From an uncultured bacterium (lineage in GTDB: Bacteria; Eisenbacteria; RBG-16-71-46; CAIMUX01), in the NCBI GenBank assembly GCA_964371055.1, contig CAYJLF010000004.1, forward strand, positions 3,993-67,992: a stretch of 64,000 bases of DNA, written 5' to 3'. Under the pieces are notes generated by a model. The model searched no databases. It was not told the DNA's origin and saw nothing but the letters and a program-made list of their open reading frames with translations. This document shows positions 3,649 to 63,396 of this stretch, piece after piece (position 1 is the first letter of the stretch; each line of letters starts with the position of its first letter). The position numbers and the translations under genes were made by a program.

Positions 3649-4964
3649 CGAACAAGCCGGAACAGCCGGGACCAACGGGAGAGCCTTCAGCGTCATCCGG
3701 TCGCGACGACGCGACGCGCGTGATGTACCGCCTGCGCCTCAAGCCGGGACGGGAGCGATCGCTGCGACTGCGCCATCCGTGGGTCTTCACCGGCGCCGTC
3801 GACGAGGTCGAGGAACTGCCGGGCGCGTCGCCCGGTGACCTCGGCGACGTCGTCGATCATCGTGGCGCGTTTCTCGGCCGCGGCACGGTCCAGCCCGAAA
3901 GCCAGATCCTCTGTCGGATCCTCTCCTTCCAACCTTCCGCGATCGATGAGGCGTTTTTCGAGGAGCGGATCCGAAACGCCGCCGCGCTGCGCCGCTCGCT
4001 CTTCGAGGAAGGTGCGACGAATTCGTGGCGCGCGGTCAACTCGGAGGGAGACGCGATACCCGGCCTGGTCGTCGACCGTTACGGCGACTTCCTCGCGGCG
4101 CAGACGCTCACCTCCGGGATGCTCCACCTTCGCCCGCTCTGGCTCCCGGTCCTCGGTCGCGTCTTCGAGCCGCGCGGGATCATCGAGCGGGGCGAACGGG
4201 CCCGTCGCGAGCAGGTGGAGGAGACCCCTGCCGCGTCGCGGGTCCTGGCGGGAGAGGCGCCGCCCCCCTGGCTGGAGATCCGCGAGGAGGGACTGCCGTT
4301 TCTGATCGACCTGGAGTCTGGGCAGAAGACGGGGTTCTACCTGGATCAGCGGGCGAACCGTTCGTCCGTGCGTCGTCACGCCGCGGATCGCGACGTATTG
4401 AACCTCTTCGGATACAGCGGCGCGTTCTCGGTCTGCGCGGGAGTCGGCGGCGCCCGCCACGTGGTGCAGGTGGAGACCTCGGCGCCGGCGCGGGAGCTGA
4501 CGAGGCGCAACTGGGAGAGGAACGGGCTCGATCCGGCCCGGCTGGAGCTGGCGGCGGAGGATGTCTTCCGTTTCGTCCGTCATGACACGCGCCAGTACGA
4601 TCTTCTCGTGCTCGATCCCCCCCCGTTCGCGAAGGACCGCAGTTCGCTCGATCGCGCCACCCGCGCCTACAAGGATCTCCATCTCTGGTCGTTCTGCCGC
4701 GCGCGCGCCGGGGCGCTCATCTGGAGCTACTCCTGTTCGCAGCAGGTCACGCTCGACCTGTTCCAGAAGATCGTCTTCGGCGCGTCCCTCGATTGCGGGG
4801 CCGAGGTGCAGATGCTGGGGCGGCTGACCGCCGGGCCTGATCATCCGATCCACCTCGATCATCCGCAGGGGGAGTATCTGAAGGGGCTCTGGTTGCGCGT
4901 TCTGCGGCCCGGCACGCCGGGCCTGCCGCCCCGCCGGCCGAGCGGTCCTCGCACCGAAGGATGA
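3645..4964 (+). CDS. rlmI: class I SAM-dependent rRNA methyltransferase (RlmI-like, PUA + MTase)
   Basis: 'YRLRLKPGRERSLRLRHPWVF' (PUA-like N-terminus) and 'LNLFGYSGAFSV', 'LVLDPPPFAK' MTase motifs. A GTG start with GGAGGGGAGG RBS overlaps the lnt stop as GTGA. The long upstream track ORF (2892..) was rejected. Confidence 0.75.
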   Translation: MTNKPEQPGPTGEPSASSGRDDATRVMYRLRLKPGRERSLRLRHPWVFTGAVDEVEELPGASPGDLGDVVDHRGAFLGRGTVQPESQILCRILSFQPSAIDEAFFEERIRNAAALRRSLFEEGATNSWRAVNSEGDAIPGLVVDRYGDFLAAQTLTSGMLHLRPLWLPVLGRVFEPRGIIERGERARREQVEETPAASRVLAGEAPPPWLEIREEGLPFLIDLESGQKTGFYLDQRANRSSVRRHAADRDVLNLFGYSGAFSVCAGVGGARHVVQVETSAPARELTRRNWERNGLDPARLELAAEDVFRFVRHDTRQYDLLVLDPPPFAKDRSSLDRATRAYKDLHLWSFCRARAGALIWSYSCSQQVTLDLFQKIVFGASLDCGAEVQMLGRLTAGPDHPIHLDHPQGEYLKGLWLRVLRPGTPGLPPRRPSGPRTEG

Positions 4965-8983: not shown

Positions 8984-11900
8984 TCAGGGAGAGAGGTAGA
9001 TGGGGCGCAGCAGCCGGCGTCCGCCGCCGGTGCAGAGCAGATAGTGGAGCCCGGGTCCCGCCAGTCCGCCCGCCGAGTTGCGGCGGTCCCAGCTCGCCTC
9101 GATCACCGTCCCCGGCCGCACCGCCGCTTCGAAGAGCCGAGCGACCCGCCCGCCGTCCAGGGCGAGGATCTCGAGCCGAAGAACCGCCTGGGGGGGAAAG
9201 TCGGCAGGGACCGTGACGCGGAAGCGGCAGCCGTCCGCCACCGGGTGAGGGAAGGGGCCCTCGACTTCCCAGGTCTCGGCATAGAGCTCCAGCGGGGCTG
9301 AGAGCTGGCTCTCGGCGCCCCCGCGGGTCTCTGCTCGGACCGACACCCGGCGAACCGTGGCGGGATCGGGCCGGTCGAGTTCCCAGACAGCCGTCGGGAT
9401 CAAGGTCTCGGTCAGGCGGAACCAGCCGCCAGGAGCGCCCTGGGCATAGAGACGGTAACCACTGACCCGCGGATCGGCGGAAGGCTCCCAGCGGAGCTCG
9501 AGGCGCGATCCATCCTGACTCCACGACGCCGCGAGGTTGGCGGGGGGATCGGGCGGCGCCAGGTCCTCGGTGTCGGTGCGGAACGATCGAAGGGGCGAGA
9601 GGGGCGAGACGCGGCCGTCGGCGGCGACGGAGCGCACCGCGAGGTGATAGTCGGTCGCTTGCTGGAGGTCCTCGATCACCCACTCGACCGAGTCGCCGGG
9701 AGCCCCCGGCTCGGGCGATTCGACTTCGGTCGCCAGGTTCCAGTTGCTGTCGGCGATGGCGGCCCGGGAGAGGCGGGTTTCGTACCGCGCCGGCACCGGC
9801 GCATCCGCGGGAACGGCCGGGTGCTCCAGGCGCATCGTCACCGAGTTGGTGCCCGCCGCCAGGACTTCGAGCACCGTGACCGCCGGCGGATCCTGAGCCG
9901 GCGGGGGCGGATCGCTCACGAACGGCTCAAGCCTCACACTCGCCGCGAGGGGCGACCACTGCCCTGCCGCGTCGGACGCCCGCACCGCGAGCCATCCCTC
10001 GGACGCCGGGACGAGGCCATCCCATCGGGCCGACATCGTCTCGCCGGCCGGGCGCGGGGTCACCTCGGCGGGAATCGGCGTGGAGGCCTCCCAGAGTGCC
10101 TCGTCTGAAATCGGAGCGTCGAAACTCATTCTTAGATCATAGATTGTGGCCACACCTTCAAGTGAATCCTCACCGGTCGCCACCCACTCCAGTCGAGCCC
10201 AGGTGTCACCCCGATCGCTCACGAGGAGTCCCGCGACGGCGGCGGGGGGCGGGTCTGGGGTGTCGGTGGTGTCCGGCGGGTCGGGGGGCGGCGCAAGCGG
10301 TTCGGTCGTCAACAGGATCGAGTTCGAGATCGGCCCGAATAGGCCCGCCGCGTCCCGCGCCCTCACGGCAAAGCCGTAGGGCGTCGAGGGGGCGAGGTCA
10401 TGGACGCGGGTGGCCTCGACCTCTCCGGGGGGGACCGGGAACGCGATCGCGGCGGTATCGACGGCGGCCCGCGACCAGTCTTCAGCACTCAGGATCAGTC
10501 TCCCCTCGAGATGCGCCACGGCGTATCCGGTGACCGCGACCCCGGTCGTCGAGTCGGCCGGTGCCGTCCACTCGAGATCGACCCAATCGGGTCCGGCCGC
10601 CAGCCGGCCGAGATCGGTGATCCGCTGCGGCGGGAGTGTGTCCGGCTCCGCCGGCGTTTCGACGACGAGCGGGGTGAGGGGCAGCACCGACCGGTGGCCG
10701 GCCGGATCGACCGCCCGGACCGCGATCCCGTACGTCCGCTGGGCCTCGAGACCGAGGACGACAAGAGACCACGGGCCTTCGGCTCCATCCGGGGCGACTT
10801 CCACTTCGCGCGTCGTGTCGGACCGGGACCACGCCTCCTCGCCGGCGATGGCGAGATCCGTGAGCACCCCCACGCGCCAGCGTGCGAGGTCGGTCGGATC
10901 GCCGCCGGCCTCGAGCGACCAGGCGATCTCGACGTCGTGAGGCCGGGCCCACAGGAGACGGAGGTCCGCGGCCGGGGACGGAGGGGTCATGTCGGGGGGT
11001 GGTGGCGGCGGCGACGCGGTCTCCGCCAGGAGAGGATTCGACAACGGCGCCAGGTTGCCGGAGTCGTCTTCCGCCCGCACGGCGAACCCATGCTGACCGA
11101 ATGCGAGTGCGACGACCCGCAGGGTGTCGGTCTTTCCCGGCTCCGAAGGGATCACGGTGGTGGCGTCGATCTCGATCGCTGCCTCCCACCGAGACTCGTG
11201 GTCGATCGCCTCTTCCGCCAGTCGGCGGACCTGGTAGCGCTCGACACGCGGATCGGCATCCGCGCGCGTCGCGATCTCCTCGTACCGGTCCGGCGGCGCG
11301 GTCCAGGCGAGGACGATCCAATCCTCGCCGGCCTCGAGCACCCGGAGATCGGTGATGGCCTCGGGCGCGAGCGTATCCGGATCGACCGGTAACGGAGGAG
11401 GATCCTCGGGGGGCGAGAGGGTGTGGAAGTGCACCGCCGGGCCCATCTCGCCGGCGACCATGGCGGCATCGAAGCCAAAGACCGCCGCGCCGTAGAGTGT
11501 GGCCGGCTCGAGGTCCAGCAGGGTCCAGGTCTCGATCGATCCGGGGGCGGCCGGGGGCGAGGGAAGGATGCGGATCGAACAGCGCGCGAGGTCGGCGACG
11601 CTCAGGAGGGAATCGCCGGCGAGCACCGCCAGGCGGTACTGCGTGCAGGATCCTCCCTCGCCGTCGTCCGGGGCCGTCCACACGAGAGTCGCCTGGGTCG
11701 AGTCGACGGCGGTCACCATCAGGTCGTCGACCGGGGCCGGCGGGCGCTGCGGCGGGGGTGGAGGCGGGACGTACGGTGCGTTCGTGCGCGCGGTGAAGGG
11801 GTTCGAGAGCCCGCCCGTCAATCCCGCGTCATCACGGGCGCGAACGCAGAACCCGTGGAGGCTGTCCGCCGGCAGCCCCTCGAAGCGGAAGAACTGGGTC

Positions 11901-48878: not shown

Positions 48879-48953
48879 GCGGGCGTAACTCAGTGGTAGA
48901 GTATCAGCTTCCCAAGCTGAGAGTCGCGGGTTCAAATCCCGTTGCCCGCTCCA
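48879..48953 (+). tRNA. tRNA-Gly (anticodon CCC), CCA encoded
   Basis: A cloverleaf folds manually: 7-bp acceptor, D-stem actc/gagt, anticodon stem tcagc/gctga with loop ttCCCaa, T-loop ttcaaat. It is followed by a T5 run. Confidence 0.85.
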
Positions 48954-53960: not shown

Positions 53961-54037
53961 CGGGGCGTGGCGCAGCCTGGTAGCGCACTTGCATGGGGGG
54001 CAAGTGGTCGCTGGTTCAAATCCAGTCGCCCCGACCA
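53961..54037 (+). tRNA. tRNA-Pro (anticodon GGG), CCA encoded
   Basis: Manual fold: acceptor cggggcg/cgccccg, anticodon stem cttgc/gcaag with loop atGGGgg, T-loop ttcaaat. Confidence 0.8.
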
Positions 54038-54154
54038 GTTCTTCGTGGTGACTCCCCGGGGCGGGCGGCCTGGTGCGCGCCGGCGCCGGGGAGTCGTCCG
54101 TTTCCATCTCGGCCGCTGCCCCGCGCGGCTCCGACCGGTGGGGGAGATCCCGTG

Positions 54155-55884: not shown

Positions 55885-55960
<76 letters not shown>

Positions 55961-56048
55961 ATGTGGCGAGGAGGCGGATCCTACCGGGTTCGTCTCCTCG
56001 TTGTTTTTCAGGCCGGTCAATCCCGGCCGGGGAGAGGAGAGAGGGACG

Positions 56049-56591: not shown

Positions 56592-57077
56592 ATGCGCGTG
56601 CGGAAGAGCCGCCGTCGTCCGGGGACCGGTCGGGCCGGACGGTCCGGCGCGTCGTTGCGGATCGTGTCGGCGGCGCTGATCATGGCGCTCGCGCTCGTGA
56701 CCGGCTGCCGCGACCGAGGTCCCGCTCCCGCCCCGGCGATTCACCCCCTGCGCGCGGTCGAGGCCGCGGAGTTGTGGCGCGCGCAATCCGGCCGCGAGGA
56801 CTTTCTCCTCCTCGACATCCGAACGCCGGCGGAATTCGAGCGCGAGCGGATTCCGGGCGCGGTCAACCTCGACTTCCACGCGGCCTCCTTCCGCGAAGAT
56901 CTCTCGAGCCTCGATCGTCAGCAGACGATCCTGCTCTATTGCCGGTCGGGCAATCGTTCCGGCCAGAGCCTCGGCCTCTTCCAGGAGCTTGGCTTCAAGG
57001 ATGTGCGGCACCTCGAGGGCGGAATCCTCGCATGGAGAGGGGCCGGTCTACCGGTGGAGGCGGGGCGCCCTCGCTGA
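56592..57077 (+). CDS. rhodanese-domain lipoprotein (putative sulfurtransferase)
   Basis: Lipobox 'LVTGC'. Rhodanese fold with active-site 'LYCRSGNRSG'. Confidence 0.7.
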   Translation: MRVRKSRRRPGTGRAGRSGASLRIVSAALIMALALVTGCRDRGPAPAPAIHPLRAVEAAELWRAQSGREDFLLLDIRTPAEFERERIPGAVNLDFHAASFREDLSSLDRQQTILLYCRSGNRSGQSLGLFQELGFKDVRHLEGGILAWRGAGLPVEAGRPR

Positions 57078-57174
57078 CGCGCGGAGCGCGGCACCCGCGG
57101 TCACGGTCGCGTGGTTTGGCGCGTGGTTTGGCGCACGGTCCGCCTCGTGGCGCGCCGCACCAGGCCGTGGAATC

Positions 57175-57203
57175 TTGCTTTGCCGCTCCCGGGAGGCTAA
57201 GCT
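57175..57203 (+). promoter_or_regulatory. putative sigma70-like promoter for tRNA-Arg
   Basis: TTGCTT (57175-57180), a 17-nt spacer, and TAAGCT (57198-57203), about 20 nt upstream of the tRNA 5' end. It is preceded by the tandem repeat 'gcgtggtttggc' x2. Confidence 0.3.
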
Positions 57204-57222: not shown

Positions 57223-57296
57223 GCCCCCGTAGCTCAGGTGGATAGAGCGACGGTTTCCTAAACCGTAGGTCGCGTGTTCGAGCCACGCCGGGGGCA
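57223..57296 (+). tRNA. tRNA-Arg (anticodon CCT), CCA not encoded
   Basis: Manual fold: acceptor gcccccg/cgggggc, D-stem gctc/gagc, anticodon stem acggt/accgt with loop ttCCTaa, T-loop ttcgagc. Confidence 0.85.
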
Positions 57297-57307
57297 CACG
57301 CCCCGCC

Positions 57308-57341
57308 GGGGGGGGGCGGGGGCCCCCCCCCCCCCCCCCCC
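57308..57341. repeat. G9-C-G5-C19 homopolymeric inverted tract forming a long all-G:C hairpin immediately 3' of tRNA-Arg
   Basis: Read directly: ggggggggg c ggggg ccccccccccccccccccc. It is preceded by 'cacgccccgcc', which resembles the tRNA 3' end 'ccacgccggggg'. Confidence 0.9.
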
Positions 57342-57394
57342 GCGACGCGGTCATCACATCCCCTCGCATCCCTTCGATCCGCTTCGCCTGGATC

Positions 57395-58393
57395 TCACTT
57401 GGACAGGGGGCAACCCAGGCGATTGTGCGCGCGGATCTCCCGCGCCAGCGCGACCATGCGACCGCGGTCGAGACTCGCCAGCGCCTCGTTGGTGCGGGCG
57501 ACGAGTTCCGATTCGGTGAGCGGGTAGTTGACGTCGGGGTGCGACGCGTTCAGCACCCCCACGATCGCCGCCCGCAAGAGGATGCGTGCGCCCCCGCGCA
57601 GCCCCGGACCATTCGCGTAGTACAGCGCGGTCAGGAGTCGGTCGTCGGCCATGCCGCGCAGCTGGCGCGGAACCACGAAGATCCGGCCGAGGCGGTGGGT
57701 CGGGCGGTAGCTGGTGTGCTTCCAGGCGGTGCGATGGCTTCGCCAGTAGGCGGCGCCGCACCCTTCGTCCCGGACCGCCACGCAGGATCGCGGCCCGCAA
57801 GGGGTGTTCTCGCCGGCAAAGATGCCCCCTTCCTGGTCGCACACATCAGCGGTCCGCACGGCGCAGGAGCCGTCCGGATAGCAGCAGGCCCCGGGCGGGA
57901 GTGGTGGCGGGCAGGGATTCGGATCGCAGGCCGAGGCGTCTCCCTGGTAGGTCCCGCCCGCCTCGCCACACTCCGCCACCGTGAAGAGCTCGCAATAGCC
58001 GGAGGCGAAACAGCAGGCCCCGACCGCTTCCGGCTGCGGGCACGGATTCGGATCGCAGGAGGTCTCCTCGCCCGCGAAGGTTCCTTCCTGGGCCAGGCAA
58101 TCCTCTTCCGTCAGGACCACGCACGATCCGTCGAAGAAGCAGCAGGCTCCGGCCGCCTCCGCCGCCGGAACCGGTGAAGGCGCCACCGGCGCGATCGGGC
58201 GGCCGGCGTCGTCGGAGGCGCATCCGGCGAACGCGAACGCTGCCAGGGCGAGCAGCGAAGCGAATCCGATCGGCCGGGTCAGACCTAGGAGATGGCTCCC
58301 GTAGGTTCGGACCGTTCCGGCGGCCCTGCGCCATGGACCACGCGCGACGCGCTCGGTGGCCCGAGAGGGTGGGGTGGAGGCGAGAGGATCCAT
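57395..58393 (-). CDS. Cys-rich tandem-repeat lipoprotein of unknown function
   Basis: Lipobox 'AFAFAGC'. Three ~43-aa repeats each follow 'GACC[FY]x[DS]G[SY]C...T...C...GG[TI][FY].G[ED]...C.PN/RPC' (6 Cys per repeat) with PQP/PPP spacers. A ~120-aa C-terminal domain follows. ATG at 58393 with a GGAGGG RBS. It is the only minus-strand gene in this region. Confidence 0.6.
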   Translation of the reverse strand: MDPLASTPPSRATERVARGPWRRAAGTVRTYGSHLLGLTRPIGFASLLALAAFAFAGCASDDAGRPIAPVAPSPVPAAEAAGACCFFDGSCVVLTEEDCLAQEGTFAGEETSCDPNPCPQPEAVGACCFASGYCELFTVAECGEAGGTYQGDASACDPNPCPPPLPPGACCYPDGSCAVRTADVCDQEGGIFAGENTPCGPRSCVAVRDEGCGAAYWRSHRTAWKHTSYRPTHRLGRIFVVPRQLRGMADDRLLTALYYANGPGLRGGARILLRAAIVGVLNASHPDVNYPLTESELVARTNEALASLDRGRMVALAREIRAHNRLGCPLSK

Positions 58394-58809: not shown

Positions 58810-60438
58810 GTGACCCCCGCGCCGGAAGCCCCTTCACCGGGGCGTCGCCACTTGGTTTCCGGCGCGTCGCGACTGGGCCTCGGGACGTTCATCAGCCGTC
58901 TGCTCGGCCTGGGCCGCGACATGGCCCGGGCCTGGCTCTTCGGCACCGGGATGGCGGCGGATGCCTTCACCGTTGCCTTCCGCGTGCCAAACCTGCTGCG
59001 CGCGCTCTTCGCCGAGGGAGCGCTCTCGGCGTCGCTCGTGCCGGTGCTGGCGGACTACGTCGAGCGGGATGACCGGGAAGCTACGGTCCGTTTTCTTCGA
59101 GCGCTCTCGACCGTTCTCTGCGCCGCCCTCGGCATCACCGTTCTCCTCGGCGTACTGCTCGCACCGACGATCGTGCCGTGGCTCGTTCATGGTTTTCGGG
59201 CGGTTCCGGGGAAAGTCGAGCTGACCGTTCGATTGACCCAGGTTCTCTTCCCCTATCTCCTTCTGATCGGTCTGGCCACGCTCGCGATGGCGGTGCTCAA
59301 CACGCATCGCCACTTCACCACCCCGGCCCTCTCGCCTTCGGTCCTGAACGTCTTCATGATCGTGGGAGCGCTCCTGGTCGCGCCGCAACTGGGGGACGAT
59401 CCGTCGGTGCAGGTCTACGGACTGGCGGCCGCCGTCCTCTTGGGCGGCGTTTTCCAGGCCGCGATCCAGTGGCCGCCGCTCCGCGCGCGTCGCCTGACGC
59501 TGGCCCCCTCCCGGGCGTGGCGCGACCCCGGGGTCGGCCGCGTCTTGTGGTTGATGCTCCCCGGAGTCCTCGGGATCGCGGTGCAGGAGATCAACGCGTT
59601 CGTCGACACGTTCCTGGCGAGCCTGCTGGTCCAGGGGAGCGTGTCGGCCCTCGAGTATGGGCAGCGCGTAATGCAGCTGCCGCTGGGAGTCATCGGCGTG
59701 GCCCTCGGCACCGCGAGCCTGCCGACCCTGTCGCGCCTGGTGAGTCGCGGAGAGAGGGCTCAGGCCGAGGATACCGCGGCCTTCTCGATCCGCCTCGTCC
59801 TGCTCGTCATGCTGCCGGCGAGTATCTGGCTCGTGATCCTGGCGCGGCCGATCCTGGCGCTGCTCTTCCAGCGCGGGGCGTTTTCGGGGGGCGACTCACT
59901 GGCGATGACCACCATGGCGTTGCGTTTCTATGCGCTCGGACTGGTGGCCTACGGGACCGCAAAATCGCTCGTTCCGCTCTTCTACGCGCACAAGGACACC
60001 CGCACTCCGGTGCGGGCCGCGGTCATCGCGTTGGTTGCCAACGTCGTGCTCAACCTGATCCTGATGCGTTACCTCGCCCTGGGCGGATTGGCGCTGGCGA
60101 CGGCGCTCAGTTCGTTCCTGAACGTCGCTCTCCTCGCCCACTGGTCCCGCCGGCGCCTCGGCCTCTGGCCGCTGCGAGGTCTGGGGGAGTGCGTCGTCCG
60201 GCTGACGCCGGGGTTGGTCGTATCCGTGGGGCTGCTCCTGGCGGCGCGGGAACTGGTGAGTGGCTGGGCTCTGCCGGGCGTGTGGGCAGCTCTGGCGGCG
60301 GCGCTGGTCCCGCTGGCGGCGGGAATGGCCGGCTATGTCGCGGCGCTGCACCTGGCGAGATCCCGGGAGTGGCTGTTTCTCTGGTCGATCGTCAGAGAGC
60401 GGATCGGGCGCCGCCGCGGAAACGAGACCGGCCGATGA
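58810..60438 (+). CDS. murJ: lipid II flippase MurJ
   Basis: 14-TM MOP-family protein: 'ISRLLGLGRDMARAWLFGTG' N-terminus, 'LLPSLS'-like 'ASLPTLSRL', conserved Arg/Asp. GTG start chosen at 58810; the track ORF starts at 58654. Confidence 0.8.
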   Translation: MTPAPEAPSPGRRHLVSGASRLGLGTFISRLLGLGRDMARAWLFGTGMAADAFTVAFRVPNLLRALFAEGALSASLVPVLADYVERDDREATVRFLRALSTVLCAALGITVLLGVLLAPTIVPWLVHGFRAVPGKVELTVRLTQVLFPYLLLIGLATLAMAVLNTHRHFTTPALSPSVLNVFMIVGALLVAPQLGDDPSVQVYGLAAAVLLGGVFQAAIQWPPLRARRLTLAPSRAWRDPGVGRVLWLMLPGVLGIAVQEINAFVDTFLASLLVQGSVSALEYGQRVMQLPLGVIGVALGTASLPTLSRLVSRGERAQAEDTAAFSIRLVLLVMLPASIWLVILARPILALLFQRGAFSGGDSLAMTTMALRFYALGLVAYGTAKSLVPLFYAHKDTRTPVRAAVIALVANVVLNLILMRYLALGGLALATALSSFLNVALLAHWSRRRLGLWPLRGLGECVVRLTPGLVVSVGLLLAARELVSGWALPGVWAALAAALVPLAAGMAGYVAALHLARSREWLFLWSIVRERIGRRRGNETGR

Positions 60439-62477
60439 AACGTCGACGTCGATCCGCCGCGCAGGCGCCGCGGCCTCCGCATCGCCGGAGGGATGAACTG
60501 GGGGATGCCCCGCCTCCCGCCGAGGAGATGGCGCGTGATCCGATGGGGGATTCGGCCGATCCTTCTTTTCGGCGGGGAGAGATCGGCCAGGTCGGGGCGC
60601 GCGCCATCCTCGAGGGACGTCTGCGTCTGCTGCCGGACGACGCCGGCGTCTATCTGTTCCGCGATGCGCGGCGTCGCGTCATCTACGTGGGCAAGGCGAA
60701 GCGGCTTCGTTCGCGCGTGCGCTCCTACTTTCGCGGCCCGGATCCGGATGACCCCCGTTTGCGGGGGCTGAGGCGACGGATCCGCCACCTCGACTGGGTC
60801 GCGACCAGTTCCGAAGTCGAGGCGCTCGTGCTCGAGGACAGCCTCATCAAGCAGTACGCTCCCCGTTACAACATCCGTCTGAAGGACGACAAGCGGTATC
60901 CCTACCTGAAAGTGACCATGCGGCACGACTATCCGGCCCTCGTCGTCACCCGGCACGTGGAGCAGGACGGTGCGCGCTATTTCGGGCCGTTCACGCGGGT
61001 CAAGGACCTCCGCCGCGTCCTGCGCACGGTGCGGGCCGTCTTCCGGCTGCGCAATTGCACCGACCGACGTCTCGCGCGCGGTGGGCGCGAGTGCCTGCAG
61101 TACTTCATCCATCGCTGCACCGCCCCCTGCACCGGGCGCGTCGATCGGGAGGCGTATGCCGCCCAGGTCCGTCCTCTGCTCGACCTCCTCTCGGGGCGCG
61201 GAGAGGAGGTGGTCGGCGTGCTCGAAGAGAGGATGCGTGCCCAGGCGGCGGCCCTGCGTTTCGAGGAGAGCGCCCGGCTGCGCGACGAAGTGGCCATGCT
61301 GCGCGAACTGATGCAGGAACAGGGACTCGTGCCTCCCGCCGAGGCCGAAGCCGACGTCGTCGGCCTGGCGACGCGAGGCAATCTCGCGTGCGGGGTCTTC
61401 CTTCATGTGCGGGAAGGACGGGTGCTGGGCAAGAGCCATCGCCTGCTGACCGGCGTTCGGGGCGCCGACCCGGCTGCACAGATGCGAGCGCTCCTCCTTT
61501 CCAGCTTCCTTCATGCGACCCGGATTCCGCGCCGCCTGGTGCTCGCGTTGGCCCCGGCCGACGAGGCGGAAGCCGCGGCCGCGCTGTCGCACGCGGCCGG
61601 CCACTCCGTGGAGTTCGAGGTCGTGACGCGCGGCGGCACGCGTCATCTCCTCGAGGTCGCGGCACGAAATGCGCACCTGCTGCTGGAGGAGGAGGAGCTG
61701 CGCGTCGCCGACAAGCGGGCCCGGGTCGATCACGCGGTCTACGCGCTGCAGGAGGCGCTCGGACTCCCCACGCCTCCCTATCGGATCGAGGGATTCGACA
61801 TCAGCAATCTGCAGGCCTCGCATCCTGTCGCCTCGATGGTGGTCTTCCGCGACGGCGTCGCCTGGAAGAGTGGCTACCGCCGTTTCCGGATGCGGGAGAC
61901 CGAGGGGCCCGACGATTTCGCGATGATCGCGGAAGTCCTGCGGCGGCGCCTGCGGCGGCTCGGGGATCGCCACGAGGCGCGCCCGGACCTGGTCCTGGTC
62001 GACGGGGGGGCCGGGCAGGTGGCGAGCGCGCGGGCCGCACTCGCGGAGGCGGGCTATCCCGACCTGCCGCTCGCCGGTCTGGCCAAGCGGAACGAAGAGA
62101 TCGTCCTGCCGGATCGTCCGTCACCTCTGTGCCTCCCGCGGACCTCGGAAGCGCTCCGGCTGCTGCAGCGCGTGCGGGACGAAGCGCATCGCTTCGCGAT
62201 CGGCTATCATCGCAGCCTGCGCGTCCGGGCGCAGCGCGTCTCACGTCTCGATGCCGTTCCCGGCGTCGGCCCGGCCCGGCGCCGCGCGCTGCTGCAACGC
62301 TTCGGCAGTGTGGCCGCCCTCCGTGCCGCCGGACCCGACGCGATCGCCGCCGTCCCGGGAATCGGGGCCAGGCTCGCCGGTCTCATCGCGGAGCGCCTGG
62401 GACCGCCGCCCCCGGGAACCGATGCGGTGAGGGCGGAGCATCCGCCGCACGACGCGGGAGGTCGCGATGACGAGTGA
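60435..62477 (+). CDS. uvrC: excinuclease ABC subunit C
   Basis: GIY-YIG domain ('GVYLFRDARRRVIYVGKAKRLRSRVRSYF'), UVR motif ('ARLRDEVAMLRE'), RNaseH-like endonuclease domain and C-terminal HhH. ATG overlaps the murJ stop as ATGA. The true start may be a downstream Met. Confidence 0.85.
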   Translation: MKRRRRSAAQAPRPPHRRRDELGDAPPPAEEMARDPMGDSADPSFRRGEIGQVGARAILEGRLRLLPDDAGVYLFRDARRRVIYVGKAKRLRSRVRSYFRGPDPDDPRLRGLRRRIRHLDWVATSSEVEALVLEDSLIKQYAPRYNIRLKDDKRYPYLKVTMRHDYPALVVTRHVEQDGARYFGPFTRVKDLRRVLRTVRAVFRLRNCTDRRLARGGRECLQYFIHRCTAPCTGRVDREAYAAQVRPLLDLLSGRGEEVVGVLEERMRAQAAALRFEESARLRDEVAMLRELMQEQGLVPPAEAEADVVGLATRGNLACGVFLHVREGRVLGKSHRLLTGVRGADPAAQMRALLLSSFLHATRIPRRLVLALAPADEAEAAAALSHAAGHSVEFEVVTRGGTRHLLEVAARNAHLLLEEEELRVADKRARVDHAVYALQEALGLPTPPYRIEGFDISNLQASHPVASMVVFRDGVAWKSGYRRFRMRETEGPDDFAMIAEVLRRRLRRLGDRHEARPDLVLVDGGAGQVASARAALAEAGYPDLPLAGLAKRNEEIVLPDRPSPLCLPRTSEALRLLQRVRDEAHRFAIGYHRSLRVRAQRVSRLDAVPGVGPARRRALLQRFGSVAALRAAGPDAIAAVPGIGARLAGLIAERLGPPPPGTDAVRAEHPPHDAGGRDDE

Positions 62478-63396
62478 GCCGACGCGAGCGACGTCGCGTG
62501 AACTCCTCCTGGAAGTGGAGGAGTGGGTCTGGCATCTCACCTTCGAACGGCGCCTCTCACCCCACAGCGTGGCCGCCTACCGGAACGATCTGCACAAGCA
62601 GGTGGAGTATCTCGGCGGGAAGGATGTCCGGCGCTGGAGCGAGGTCAGCGCGGAGCTGGTGCGGGAGGGGCTGGCCCGGCTGCACGACGCGGGGGAGGCG
62701 CCCCGTTCGCGCCTGCGGGCCCGTTCCGCGTTGCGCGGATTCTTCCGGTGGATGGTCCACAGCCGCCGGCTCGCCGTCGATCCGACCCGTGATGTCGAGG
62801 CGCCGCGGCTTCGGTCCGAGCTGCCGGATGTCCTGGACCCGGAGGACATCACCCGCCTGCTCGAGGCGTGCGGCGGGGCGCGACCGCTGGACGTGCGCGA
62901 CCGGGCCCTGCTCGAGACGGCCTACGGCACGGGGCTTCGGGCCTCCGAGTTGACGGGCCTCGGCGTCGAGGAGATCGACTTCCGTGAGCGTTGGCTTCGC
63001 GTGCGGGGGAAGGGGAACAAGGAGCGGATGGTGCCGCTCGGCCGCCCCGCCCTCGAGGCCCTGCGGCGCTACTTCGCCTCTGCTCGCCCGGAACTCCTGG
63101 GGCGTCGCGCCGACCCGGGCGTGGTCTTTCTGAACGCCCGGGGCGGACCCCTGACGCGGGTCGGCCTCTGGAAGATCCTGCGACGCCGGGCCGGCTCGGC
63201 CGGCATCGATCCGGCCGCGATCCATCCCCACTTGTTGCGGCACAGTTTCGCGACCCACCTCCTGCACGGCGGCGCGCCGCTGCGCGTCGTCCAGGAGCTT
63301 TTGGGGCACAGCAGCGTGACGACGACCGAGATCTACACCGCCGTGGACCGGGGCTTCCTGCGGCGCGTGCATCGGGAGTACCATCCACGGGGTTGA
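62467..63396 (+). CDS. xerD: tyrosine site-specific recombinase XerD/XerC
   Basis: N-terminal SAM-like core-binding domain. Catalytic R...K...HxxR...Y motifs ('RHSFATHLLHGG', 'LLGHSSVTTTEIYT'). It overlaps the uvrC end by 11 nt. Core-gene context suggests chromosome dimer resolution rather than a phage integrase. Confidence 0.85.
   Translation: MTSEPTRATSRELLLEVEEWVWHLTFERRLSPHSVAAYRNDLHKQVEYLGGKDVRRWSEVSAELVREGLARLHDAGEAPRSRLRARSALRGFFRWMVHSRRLAVDPTRDVEAPRLRSELPDVLDPEDITRLLEACGGARPLDVRDRALLETAYGTGLRASELTGLGVEEIDFRERWLRVRGKGNKERMVPLGRPALEALRRYFASARPELLGRRADPGVVFLNARGGPLTRVGLWKILRRRAGSAGIDPAAIHPHLLRHSFATHLLHGGAPLRVVQELLGHSSVTTTEIYTAVDRGFLRRVHREYHPRG

Follow-up and report, generated by a model that had tools for sequence, protein, structure and literature searches.

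The tRNA-Arg(CCT) gene occupies positions 57223–57296 on the + strand of the window, by which we mean the whole 64,000-nucleotide stretch of DNA that was analysed. The gene is called by ARAGORN and matched by Rfam RF00005 with 65.2 bits, an alignment that ends at the discriminator A at 57296, and the Rfam matches in the window are four tRNAs only. It lacks an encoded CCA, the discriminator A being followed by CAC (57296–57299), and the tRNA-Arg genes of relatives likewise lack it; CCA is encoded by tRNA-Gly and by both tRNA-Pro genes (48951–48953, 54035–54037 and 55958–55960). The tRNA-Arg gene is preceded on the + strand by tRNA-Pro(CGG), apt and a rhodanese-domain lipoprotein gene (56592–57077, +; Pfam PF00581, E = 3.6e-21). 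Downstream, a convergent gene on the − strand (57395–58393), supported by its open reading frame and by gene calls, encodes a Cys-rich repeat lipoprotein of 332 aa, an orthologue of which holds the same position in the relatives L015 and L021. This protein has no Pfam or NCBIfam match; it contains a Cys-rich unit of about 45 aa (GACCF.DGSC...C.PNPCP) in three copies, which represent an uncharacterised repeat domain, and has more than 440 homologues, the named ones coming mostly from Eisenbacteria and Planctomycetota MAGs. Beyond it follow murJ, uvrC and, adjoining uvrC at 5 kb from tRNA-Arg, an Xer-type tyrosine recombinase (62467–63396; NF001399, 319 bits against a cut-off of 279).

Between the rhodanese stop codon and the promoter region of tRNA-Arg, the 12-mer GCGTGGTTTGGC is perfectly duplicated in tandem (57109–57132), and the duplication is kept in all sibling contigs of the population described below. 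A promoter-like element, TTGCTT-17 nt-TAAGCT, is located at 57175–57203 (+), about 20 nt upstream of tRNA-Arg, and relatives carry TTGCGC-17-TACGAT or TACCAT at the same place; a consensus promoter scan made no call for the element of the window. Judged from these elements in the window and in relatives, the sequence suggests that tRNA-Arg may form a monocistronic unit. The two tRNA-Pro genes of the window are each followed by a hairpin 6–13 nt past their CCA. Specifically, a strong hairpin of 10 bp plus (54047–54096) lies 13 nt after the CCA of tRNA-Pro(GGG), while a canonical terminator with a 16-bp stem and TTGTTTTTC (55966–56008) lies after tRNA-Pro(CGG), immediately before apt.

The region between tRNA-Arg and the convergent gene consists of three parts. 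The spacer CACGCCCCGCC (57297–57307, +) is real sequence, identical in seven sibling contigs and in a sister lineage. It is followed by G9 C G5 (57308–57322) and C19 (57323–57341), an unreliable stretch to which no strand is assigned, and then by the right flank GCGACGCGGTCATCAC... (57342–57394, +), which is reproducible and extends to the convergent gene's stop codon. The string G9-C-G5-C19, starting 11 nt past tRNA-Arg, is thus present in the window exactly as the initial annotation described it, and a C run of this length lies well outside what chance would give. C19 is the longest homopolymer of the 64 kb, the next longest run being 9, and in this window of 69.8% G+C a first-order Markov model expects about 1.5e-6 C runs of at least 19 per window. 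Additionally, the tract is the only pair of a G run and a C run in the 64 kb and forms the most stable 50-nt fold of the whole window; the RNA fold of its 86-nt surroundings reaches −53 kcal/mol, with z = −2.1 against shuffles.

Other reconstructions of the same locus were gathered with the exact rhodanese-domain lipoprotein as anchor, which was found on 23 contigs. Upwards of 20 metaSPAdes contigs, of 3–23x coverage and drawn from the sibling ENA assemblies ERZ13692934-48, ERZ13693050 and ERZ13693099, encode exactly the rhodanese and the lipoprotein of the window. The comparison covers 11 distinct contigs of one Candidatus Eisenbacteria population, that of the window (L001–L009, L011 and L014; the duplicates L010, L012 and L013 were left out) and is made at the level of assembled contigs, giving 12 reconstructions including the window. 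Outside the tract, the sibling contigs are 99.1–100% identical to the window. The right flank (57342–57400) is identical in 11 of the 11 and the left flank (57223–57307) in seven, and the 51 nt at 57300–57350 are found in none. The interior between the flanks differs in every one of the 12 reconstructions, measures 26–336 nt in the siblings and contains G runs, C runs, N10 gaps and A/C-rich junk; an N10 gap interrupts it in eight of the 11 contigs, and A/C junk is seen in L001, L002, L007, L009 and L011. L014, at 23x, terminates within the tract in G-rich junk, and tRNA-Arg itself is partly or wholly missing from L003 and L006. The L003 contig diverges upstream of the tRNA (10554–10609, equivalent to window 57152 onward) into 56 unique nt and carries no tRNA-Arg, which probably reflects a wrong graph path. 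A look-up of a window-specific open reading frame across the tract, intended to count contigs with the same version, found it not on record. Control sites behave differently from the tract: the hairpin after tRNA-Pro(GGG) is identical in five of five contigs, the terminator after tRNA-Pro(CGG) is identical in every contig that covers it, and the 339-nt intergenic region of a relative is identical across three independent Logan assemblies.

Differences in length between assemblies, together with a tract length that would be slippable if it were real, could point to a contingency tract whose slippage switches a neighbouring gene, one of the readings put forward in the initial annotation. Phase-variable poly-G and poly-C contingency loci are familiar from Neisseria, Haemophilus and Campylobacter, and the printed tract would resemble them in homopolymer length if it were real; the tract differs from them, however, in lying outside any reading frame and any promoter spacer. 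The site separates two genes that converge on it, at 11 nt from the end of the tRNA and 53 nt from the stop codon of the lipoprotein, and such a switch is therefore very improbable. Moreover, since the differences in length are accompanied by N gaps and junk, they are no evidence of variation in vivo.

Several features of the failed interiors point instead to a technical origin. The non-G/C junk has 83 A against 1 T on the left of the gaps and 7 A against 28 T on their right, so that its composition tracks read orientation rather than genome strand; being A-rich in read orientation on both sides, the junk therefore cannot be genome sequence. L007 and L009 have a junk string in common and are thus not fully independent; some of their reads may be the same. 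The N10 is a placeholder and not a length, as the second N10 of L007 spans 0 nt of the window. A second site with such junk lies inside murJ of L002 (ERZ13692939; 13620–13743, window about 60148–60197), where about 110 nt of poly-G junk is joined by an N10 and a T-to-G-degraded duplicate; untrimmed poly-G read tails have therefore entered these assemblies. The L002 junk breaks the murJ gene call into 471 aa and 70 aa, and the window is clean at that site. Poly-G tails are a known artefact of two-colour Illumina chemistry, in which an absent signal is called G (PMC6129281), and runs of Illumina miscalls are known to be triggered by inverted repeats and GGC motifs (PMC3141275). Judged from the poly-G junk, the sequencing platform was probably two-colour Illumina. 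Two comparisons were less informative. The edit distances of the reconstructions to the window version and to an ordinary hairpin are ambiguous, and a degraded read-through test, in which junk was compared with the true flank under G→C and T→A collapse and which would have fixed the tract length, gave no significant result (best p ~0.06).

The same locus in a sister lineage contains no homopolymer. The Logan contig SRR36158022 (L026) is 91% identical in nucleotides to the window over 3.2 kb and therefore represents a sister lineage of the focal population. Its left spacer CACGCCCCGCC and its right flank GCGACGCGGTCATCACA are the same as in the window, the first 17 nt of the right flank being identical, and between them stands a 27-nt hairpin, CGGCCGTCGGGGC-CTC-GCCCCGACGGC, with an 11-bp stem (interior sequence CGGCCGTCGGGGCCTCGCCCCGACGGC). 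Within the focal population, one contig (L011) carries GCCGTCGGGGCACCGCCCCGACGGC directly before the right flank GCGACGCGG; its hairpin, GCCGTCGGGGC-ACC-GCCCCGACGGC, has the stem of the sister lineage and the loop ACC, and its left neighbour is 220 nt of unplaced sequence instead of the tRNA flank. The ordinary hairpin is thus seen in two contigs, one from another lineage at 91% identity and one from the focal population with the wrong left neighbour. Degraded traces of the same arms can be recognised in further focal contigs. For example, the right boundaries of L001, L003, L008 and L009 are closer to GCCCCGACGGC than to poly-C, with CCCCGGCGGCC, CCCGGGCGGGC and CCCCCGCGGGC resembling that arm, while the left starts of L002 and L007 are equally close to CGGCCGTCGGGGC and to a G run, with GGGCGGCCGGGGC and GGCCCGCCGGGGGC resembling the former.

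On this evidence, the homopolymers are most likely base-calling and assembly junk, laid over an ordinary GC-rich hairpin in the terminator slot of tRNA-Arg, a reading that we hold with moderate confidence; the window is very probably wrong at this site, which is best regarded as an assembly flaw. The true sequence at 57308–57341 would then probably be CGGCCGTCGGGGC-ACC-GCCCCGACGGC, 27 nt long, as judged from the two contigs that retain it. In this arrangement, an ordinary, nearly pure G/C hairpin would stand between CACGCCCCGCC and GCGACGCGG, with an 11-bp stem (GCCGTCGGGGC / GCCCCGACGGC) that could be extended to 13–17 bp and a 3-nt loop, and the candidate full sequence would read tRNA-CACGCCCCGCC-CGGCCGTCGGGGCACCGCCCCGACGGC-GCGACGCGG. 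Its predicted fold has −21.3 kcal/mol as DNA and −33.7 kcal/mol as RNA. The initial annotation had listed an assembly or polishing artefact at a homopolymer among its alternatives, which comes close to this explanation, except that the homopolymers themselves are probably the artefact.

A plausible route from hairpin to printed tract runs through read failure. Reads would fail on entering the hairpin from either side, presumably because clusters stall and dephase there. In two-colour calling, no signal is read as G, red alone as C, and red plus green as A, so that a stalled and dephased cluster would, in the direction of the read, give Gs first, then Cs and finally junk rich in A and C. The G/C-only stretch, once dephased, would be called C, red being its sole signal, and the A and T positions mixing in further on would produce A and C calls. 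Reads of the opposite strand would mirror this pattern, such that a G run followed by a C run could appear on the + strand on both sides of the hairpin, after which metaSPAdes would either fuse the two sides, as in the window, or scaffold them with N10.

The artefact explanation nevertheless has weak points, and some of them speak for a real homopolymer pair. Under that alternative, the focal lineage would carry about G12–16, perhaps with one C, followed by about C17–22, for example if the G4/C4 core of the ancestral hairpin had expanded, and the product would fill the terminator slot of the tRNA with a hairpin of G:C pairs only. The assemblies would disagree because two-colour short reads cannot size such runs, and slippage in vivo may add to the disagreement. 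Reconstructions that keep the left flank all open G-rich and continue into a long C run, and six of nine left starts have clean G13–16 followed by C12–22, as a real homopolymer pair would give. Four reconstructions (the window, L001, L004 and L014) agree on about G12–15 with one C, that is 11–14 Gs interrupted by a single C, followed by C17–21, and the gapless versions measure 31–34 nt against the 27 nt expected from the ordinary hairpin. A dark run, then a red run, then red-stuck junk is also what long G and C homopolymers should produce. In addition, the hairpin after tRNA-Pro(GGG), 3 kb upstream, is similar in G+C and in stability (−24.1 kcal/mol as DNA) and assembles cleanly, whereas the tRNA-Arg hairpin fails in 11 of 11 contigs. 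An ordinary hairpin offers no obvious locus-specific cause for such a failure, and a real tract explains the universal assembly failure better than the artefact reading does. The L011 contig, on which the ordinary hairpin partly depends, is itself partly wrong.

Against a real homopolymer pair stands, above all, the sister lineage, with its ordinary hairpin between identical flanks; passing from that state to G14/C19 while the flanks stay 100% conserved would probably need many mutational steps. The interrupting C shifts among reconstructions, following 3, 6, 7 or 9 Gs, and no other run in the 64 kb exceeds 9. Furthermore, the intact hairpin of L011 and the arm traces in six other contigs would need a second allele. 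Overall, a real tract is unlikely, though it is the foremost competitor of the artefact explanation. Its polymorphic form, in which L011 holds the ordinary allele and most cells an expanded homopolymer allele of about 14 and about 19 nt, is also doubtful, marginally more so. If true, a real tract would constitute a hypermutable all-G:C hairpin that lacks a U-tract, has G-quadruplex or i-motif potential and separates a tRNA from a convergent gene. Its homopolymer pair would be unusually long among bacteria, yet remain a local curiosity.

The unplaced sequence of L011 raises the further alternative that some or all cells carry additional DNA here, a hidden insertion or other structural variant separating the hairpin from the tRNA flank, which would make the short gapless versions false joins; the 220 nt of L011, or a repeat element, would be the candidates. 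The L011 sequence (4055–4296, in reverse orientation relative to the window) amounts to 220–240 nt between an N10 and the hairpin, is absent from the window, and stems either from a chimera, in a read or an assembly path, or from a rare variant. It is complex, ORF-like and contiguous with the hairpin and the right flank, and the summed scaffold interiors of L007 and L009 reach about 200 nt as well. However, it occurs in only one of the 12 reconstructions and matches no other locus compared, three assemblies close the gap in 31–52 nt, and N10 is a placeholder. Relatives keep the tRNA-to-lipoprotein-stop distance at 97–135 nt, which also argues against an insertion, and this alternative is accordingly improbable. 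An assignment of the L011 insert to a fragment of an M28 peptidase was unsupported, the sequence having neither a protein homologue nor a Pfam match.

The ordinary hairpin favoured here fits what relatives carry at the same place. The 3′ part of tRNA-Arg(CCT), at least 60 nt, is identical in L015, L021–L024 and L026. The more distant relatives among these (L015, L021–L023 and L024) have an identical tRNA and the same gene order, with rhodanese proteins 64–66% and lipoproteins about 72% identical, and bear a 12–14-bp hairpin, GGCGCGGGAGCC...GG(T/C)(T/C)CCCGCGCC, 2–3 nt past the discriminator, with a T-rich tail behind it. Among genome contigs, the exact tRNA 3′ half has one match, in a different Eisenbacteria species (L016), where a 12-bp hairpin and TTCTTTCT lie 32 nt after the tRNA; it has no match among metagenome contigs. 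L016, together with the names of homologues, places the organism of the window in Candidatus Eisenbacteria. Two contigs found with a shorter tRNA pattern (L017 and L018) carry unrelated tRNAs, two homologues of the convergent lipoprotein (P0005 and P0014) are non-syntenic paralogues, and one rhodanese homologue (P0124) is likewise non-syntenic.

Because both the relatives and other tRNAs of the window carry hairpins there, these sequences identify the site as the slot in which a tRNA gene keeps its terminator hairpin, and a hairpin in it may serve as a terminator or processing signal. The initial annotation had considered a terminator without a U-tract serving the convergent tRNA and lipoprotein genes, and the part of this proposal that stands is the slot, which holds terminator-type hairpins in relatives and after other tRNAs of the window. 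The site shares with Rho-independent terminators after tRNAs a GC-rich stem-loop no more than about 12 nt from the tRNA 3′ end, with convergent genes on its two sides, and a GC-rich stem-loop 11 nt after tRNA-Arg is given by the folds of both the printed tract and the sister-lineage type of hairpin. Unlike such terminators, and unlike the T-tailed hairpins of the distant relatives, both versions lack a T tract on either strand, the stem being followed by GCGACGCGGTCATC on the + strand and by GGCGGGGCGTGTG on the − strand; a terminator scan of the window returned nothing at the tract site. Since the defining U tract is missing on both strands, the post-tRNA-Arg hairpin resembles an intrinsic terminator and is not filed as a canonical Rho-independent one.

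Conserved synteny also bears on the leading interpretation of the initial annotation, an att-site scar from the integration or excision of an element at tRNA-Arg. Under this reading, which is not supported, the tract would be a by-product. The 3′ ends of tRNA genes are common integration sites, and the locus resembles tRNA-linked att sites in its position and in that a few bases of the tRNA end are repeated, as CACGCC (6 nt) and a 9-nt match, CGCCGGGGG, recur right after the tRNA. The duplication described in the initial annotation therefore exists as printed, but five of the nine nucleotides of the longer match fall in the unreliable G run. A shared string of at least 9 nt is found in 0.4% of random adjacent 20-mer pairs, whereas one of at least 6 nt is found in 12%; with the sister-lineage hairpin in place, only CACGCC is common to the tRNA end and the downstream sequence, and without the unreliable Gs the repeat thus falls to chance level. 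The locus further differs from tRNA-linked att sites in having no repeat pair, integrase or island. The 21-mer of the tRNA 3′ end has a single match in the window at up to three mismatches, with no second copy, and the window holds no phage-type integrase, its sole recombinase being the Xer-type protein that adjoins uvrC. The order apt, rhodanese lipoprotein, tRNA-Arg, convergent lipoprotein is the same in L015, L021–L024 and L026, and GC content is flat across the site. An att scar is consequently even less credible than a contingency tract.

The main value of the observation is that of a quality flag, since about 34 nt of the window, which probably belongs to a public MAG, are unfit for motif, G-quadruplex, terminator or phase-variation analyses. 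The G-quadruplex and i-motif potential ascribed to the tract in the initial annotation was dropped from consideration for this reason, the sequence itself being unreliable. The case also offers a pattern by which similar sites may be recognised: a G run and then a C run, enclosed by unique flanks, can arise when reads of both strands fail at one point in two-colour data. A comparison of sibling assemblies with one another and with a sister lineage is enough to expose it, with no recourse to reads.

The closest known counterpart of the printed tract is an artefact of sequencing or assembly that arises at inverted repeats in two-colour data. Classic poly-G tails differ from it in reaching the read end without switching to long C runs. 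This switch to C, like the failure of the tRNA-Arg hairpin next to the clean assembly of a similar one 3 kb away, is accounted for by inference alone. In other respects the correspondence with two-colour poly-G and inverted-repeat miscall artefacts is close: the G runs begin at a fixed template position, the same assemblies contain poly-G junk at another site, junk composition mirrors the direction of the reads, and the site of the tract is itself an inverted repeat rich in GGC, as at known runs of miscalls.
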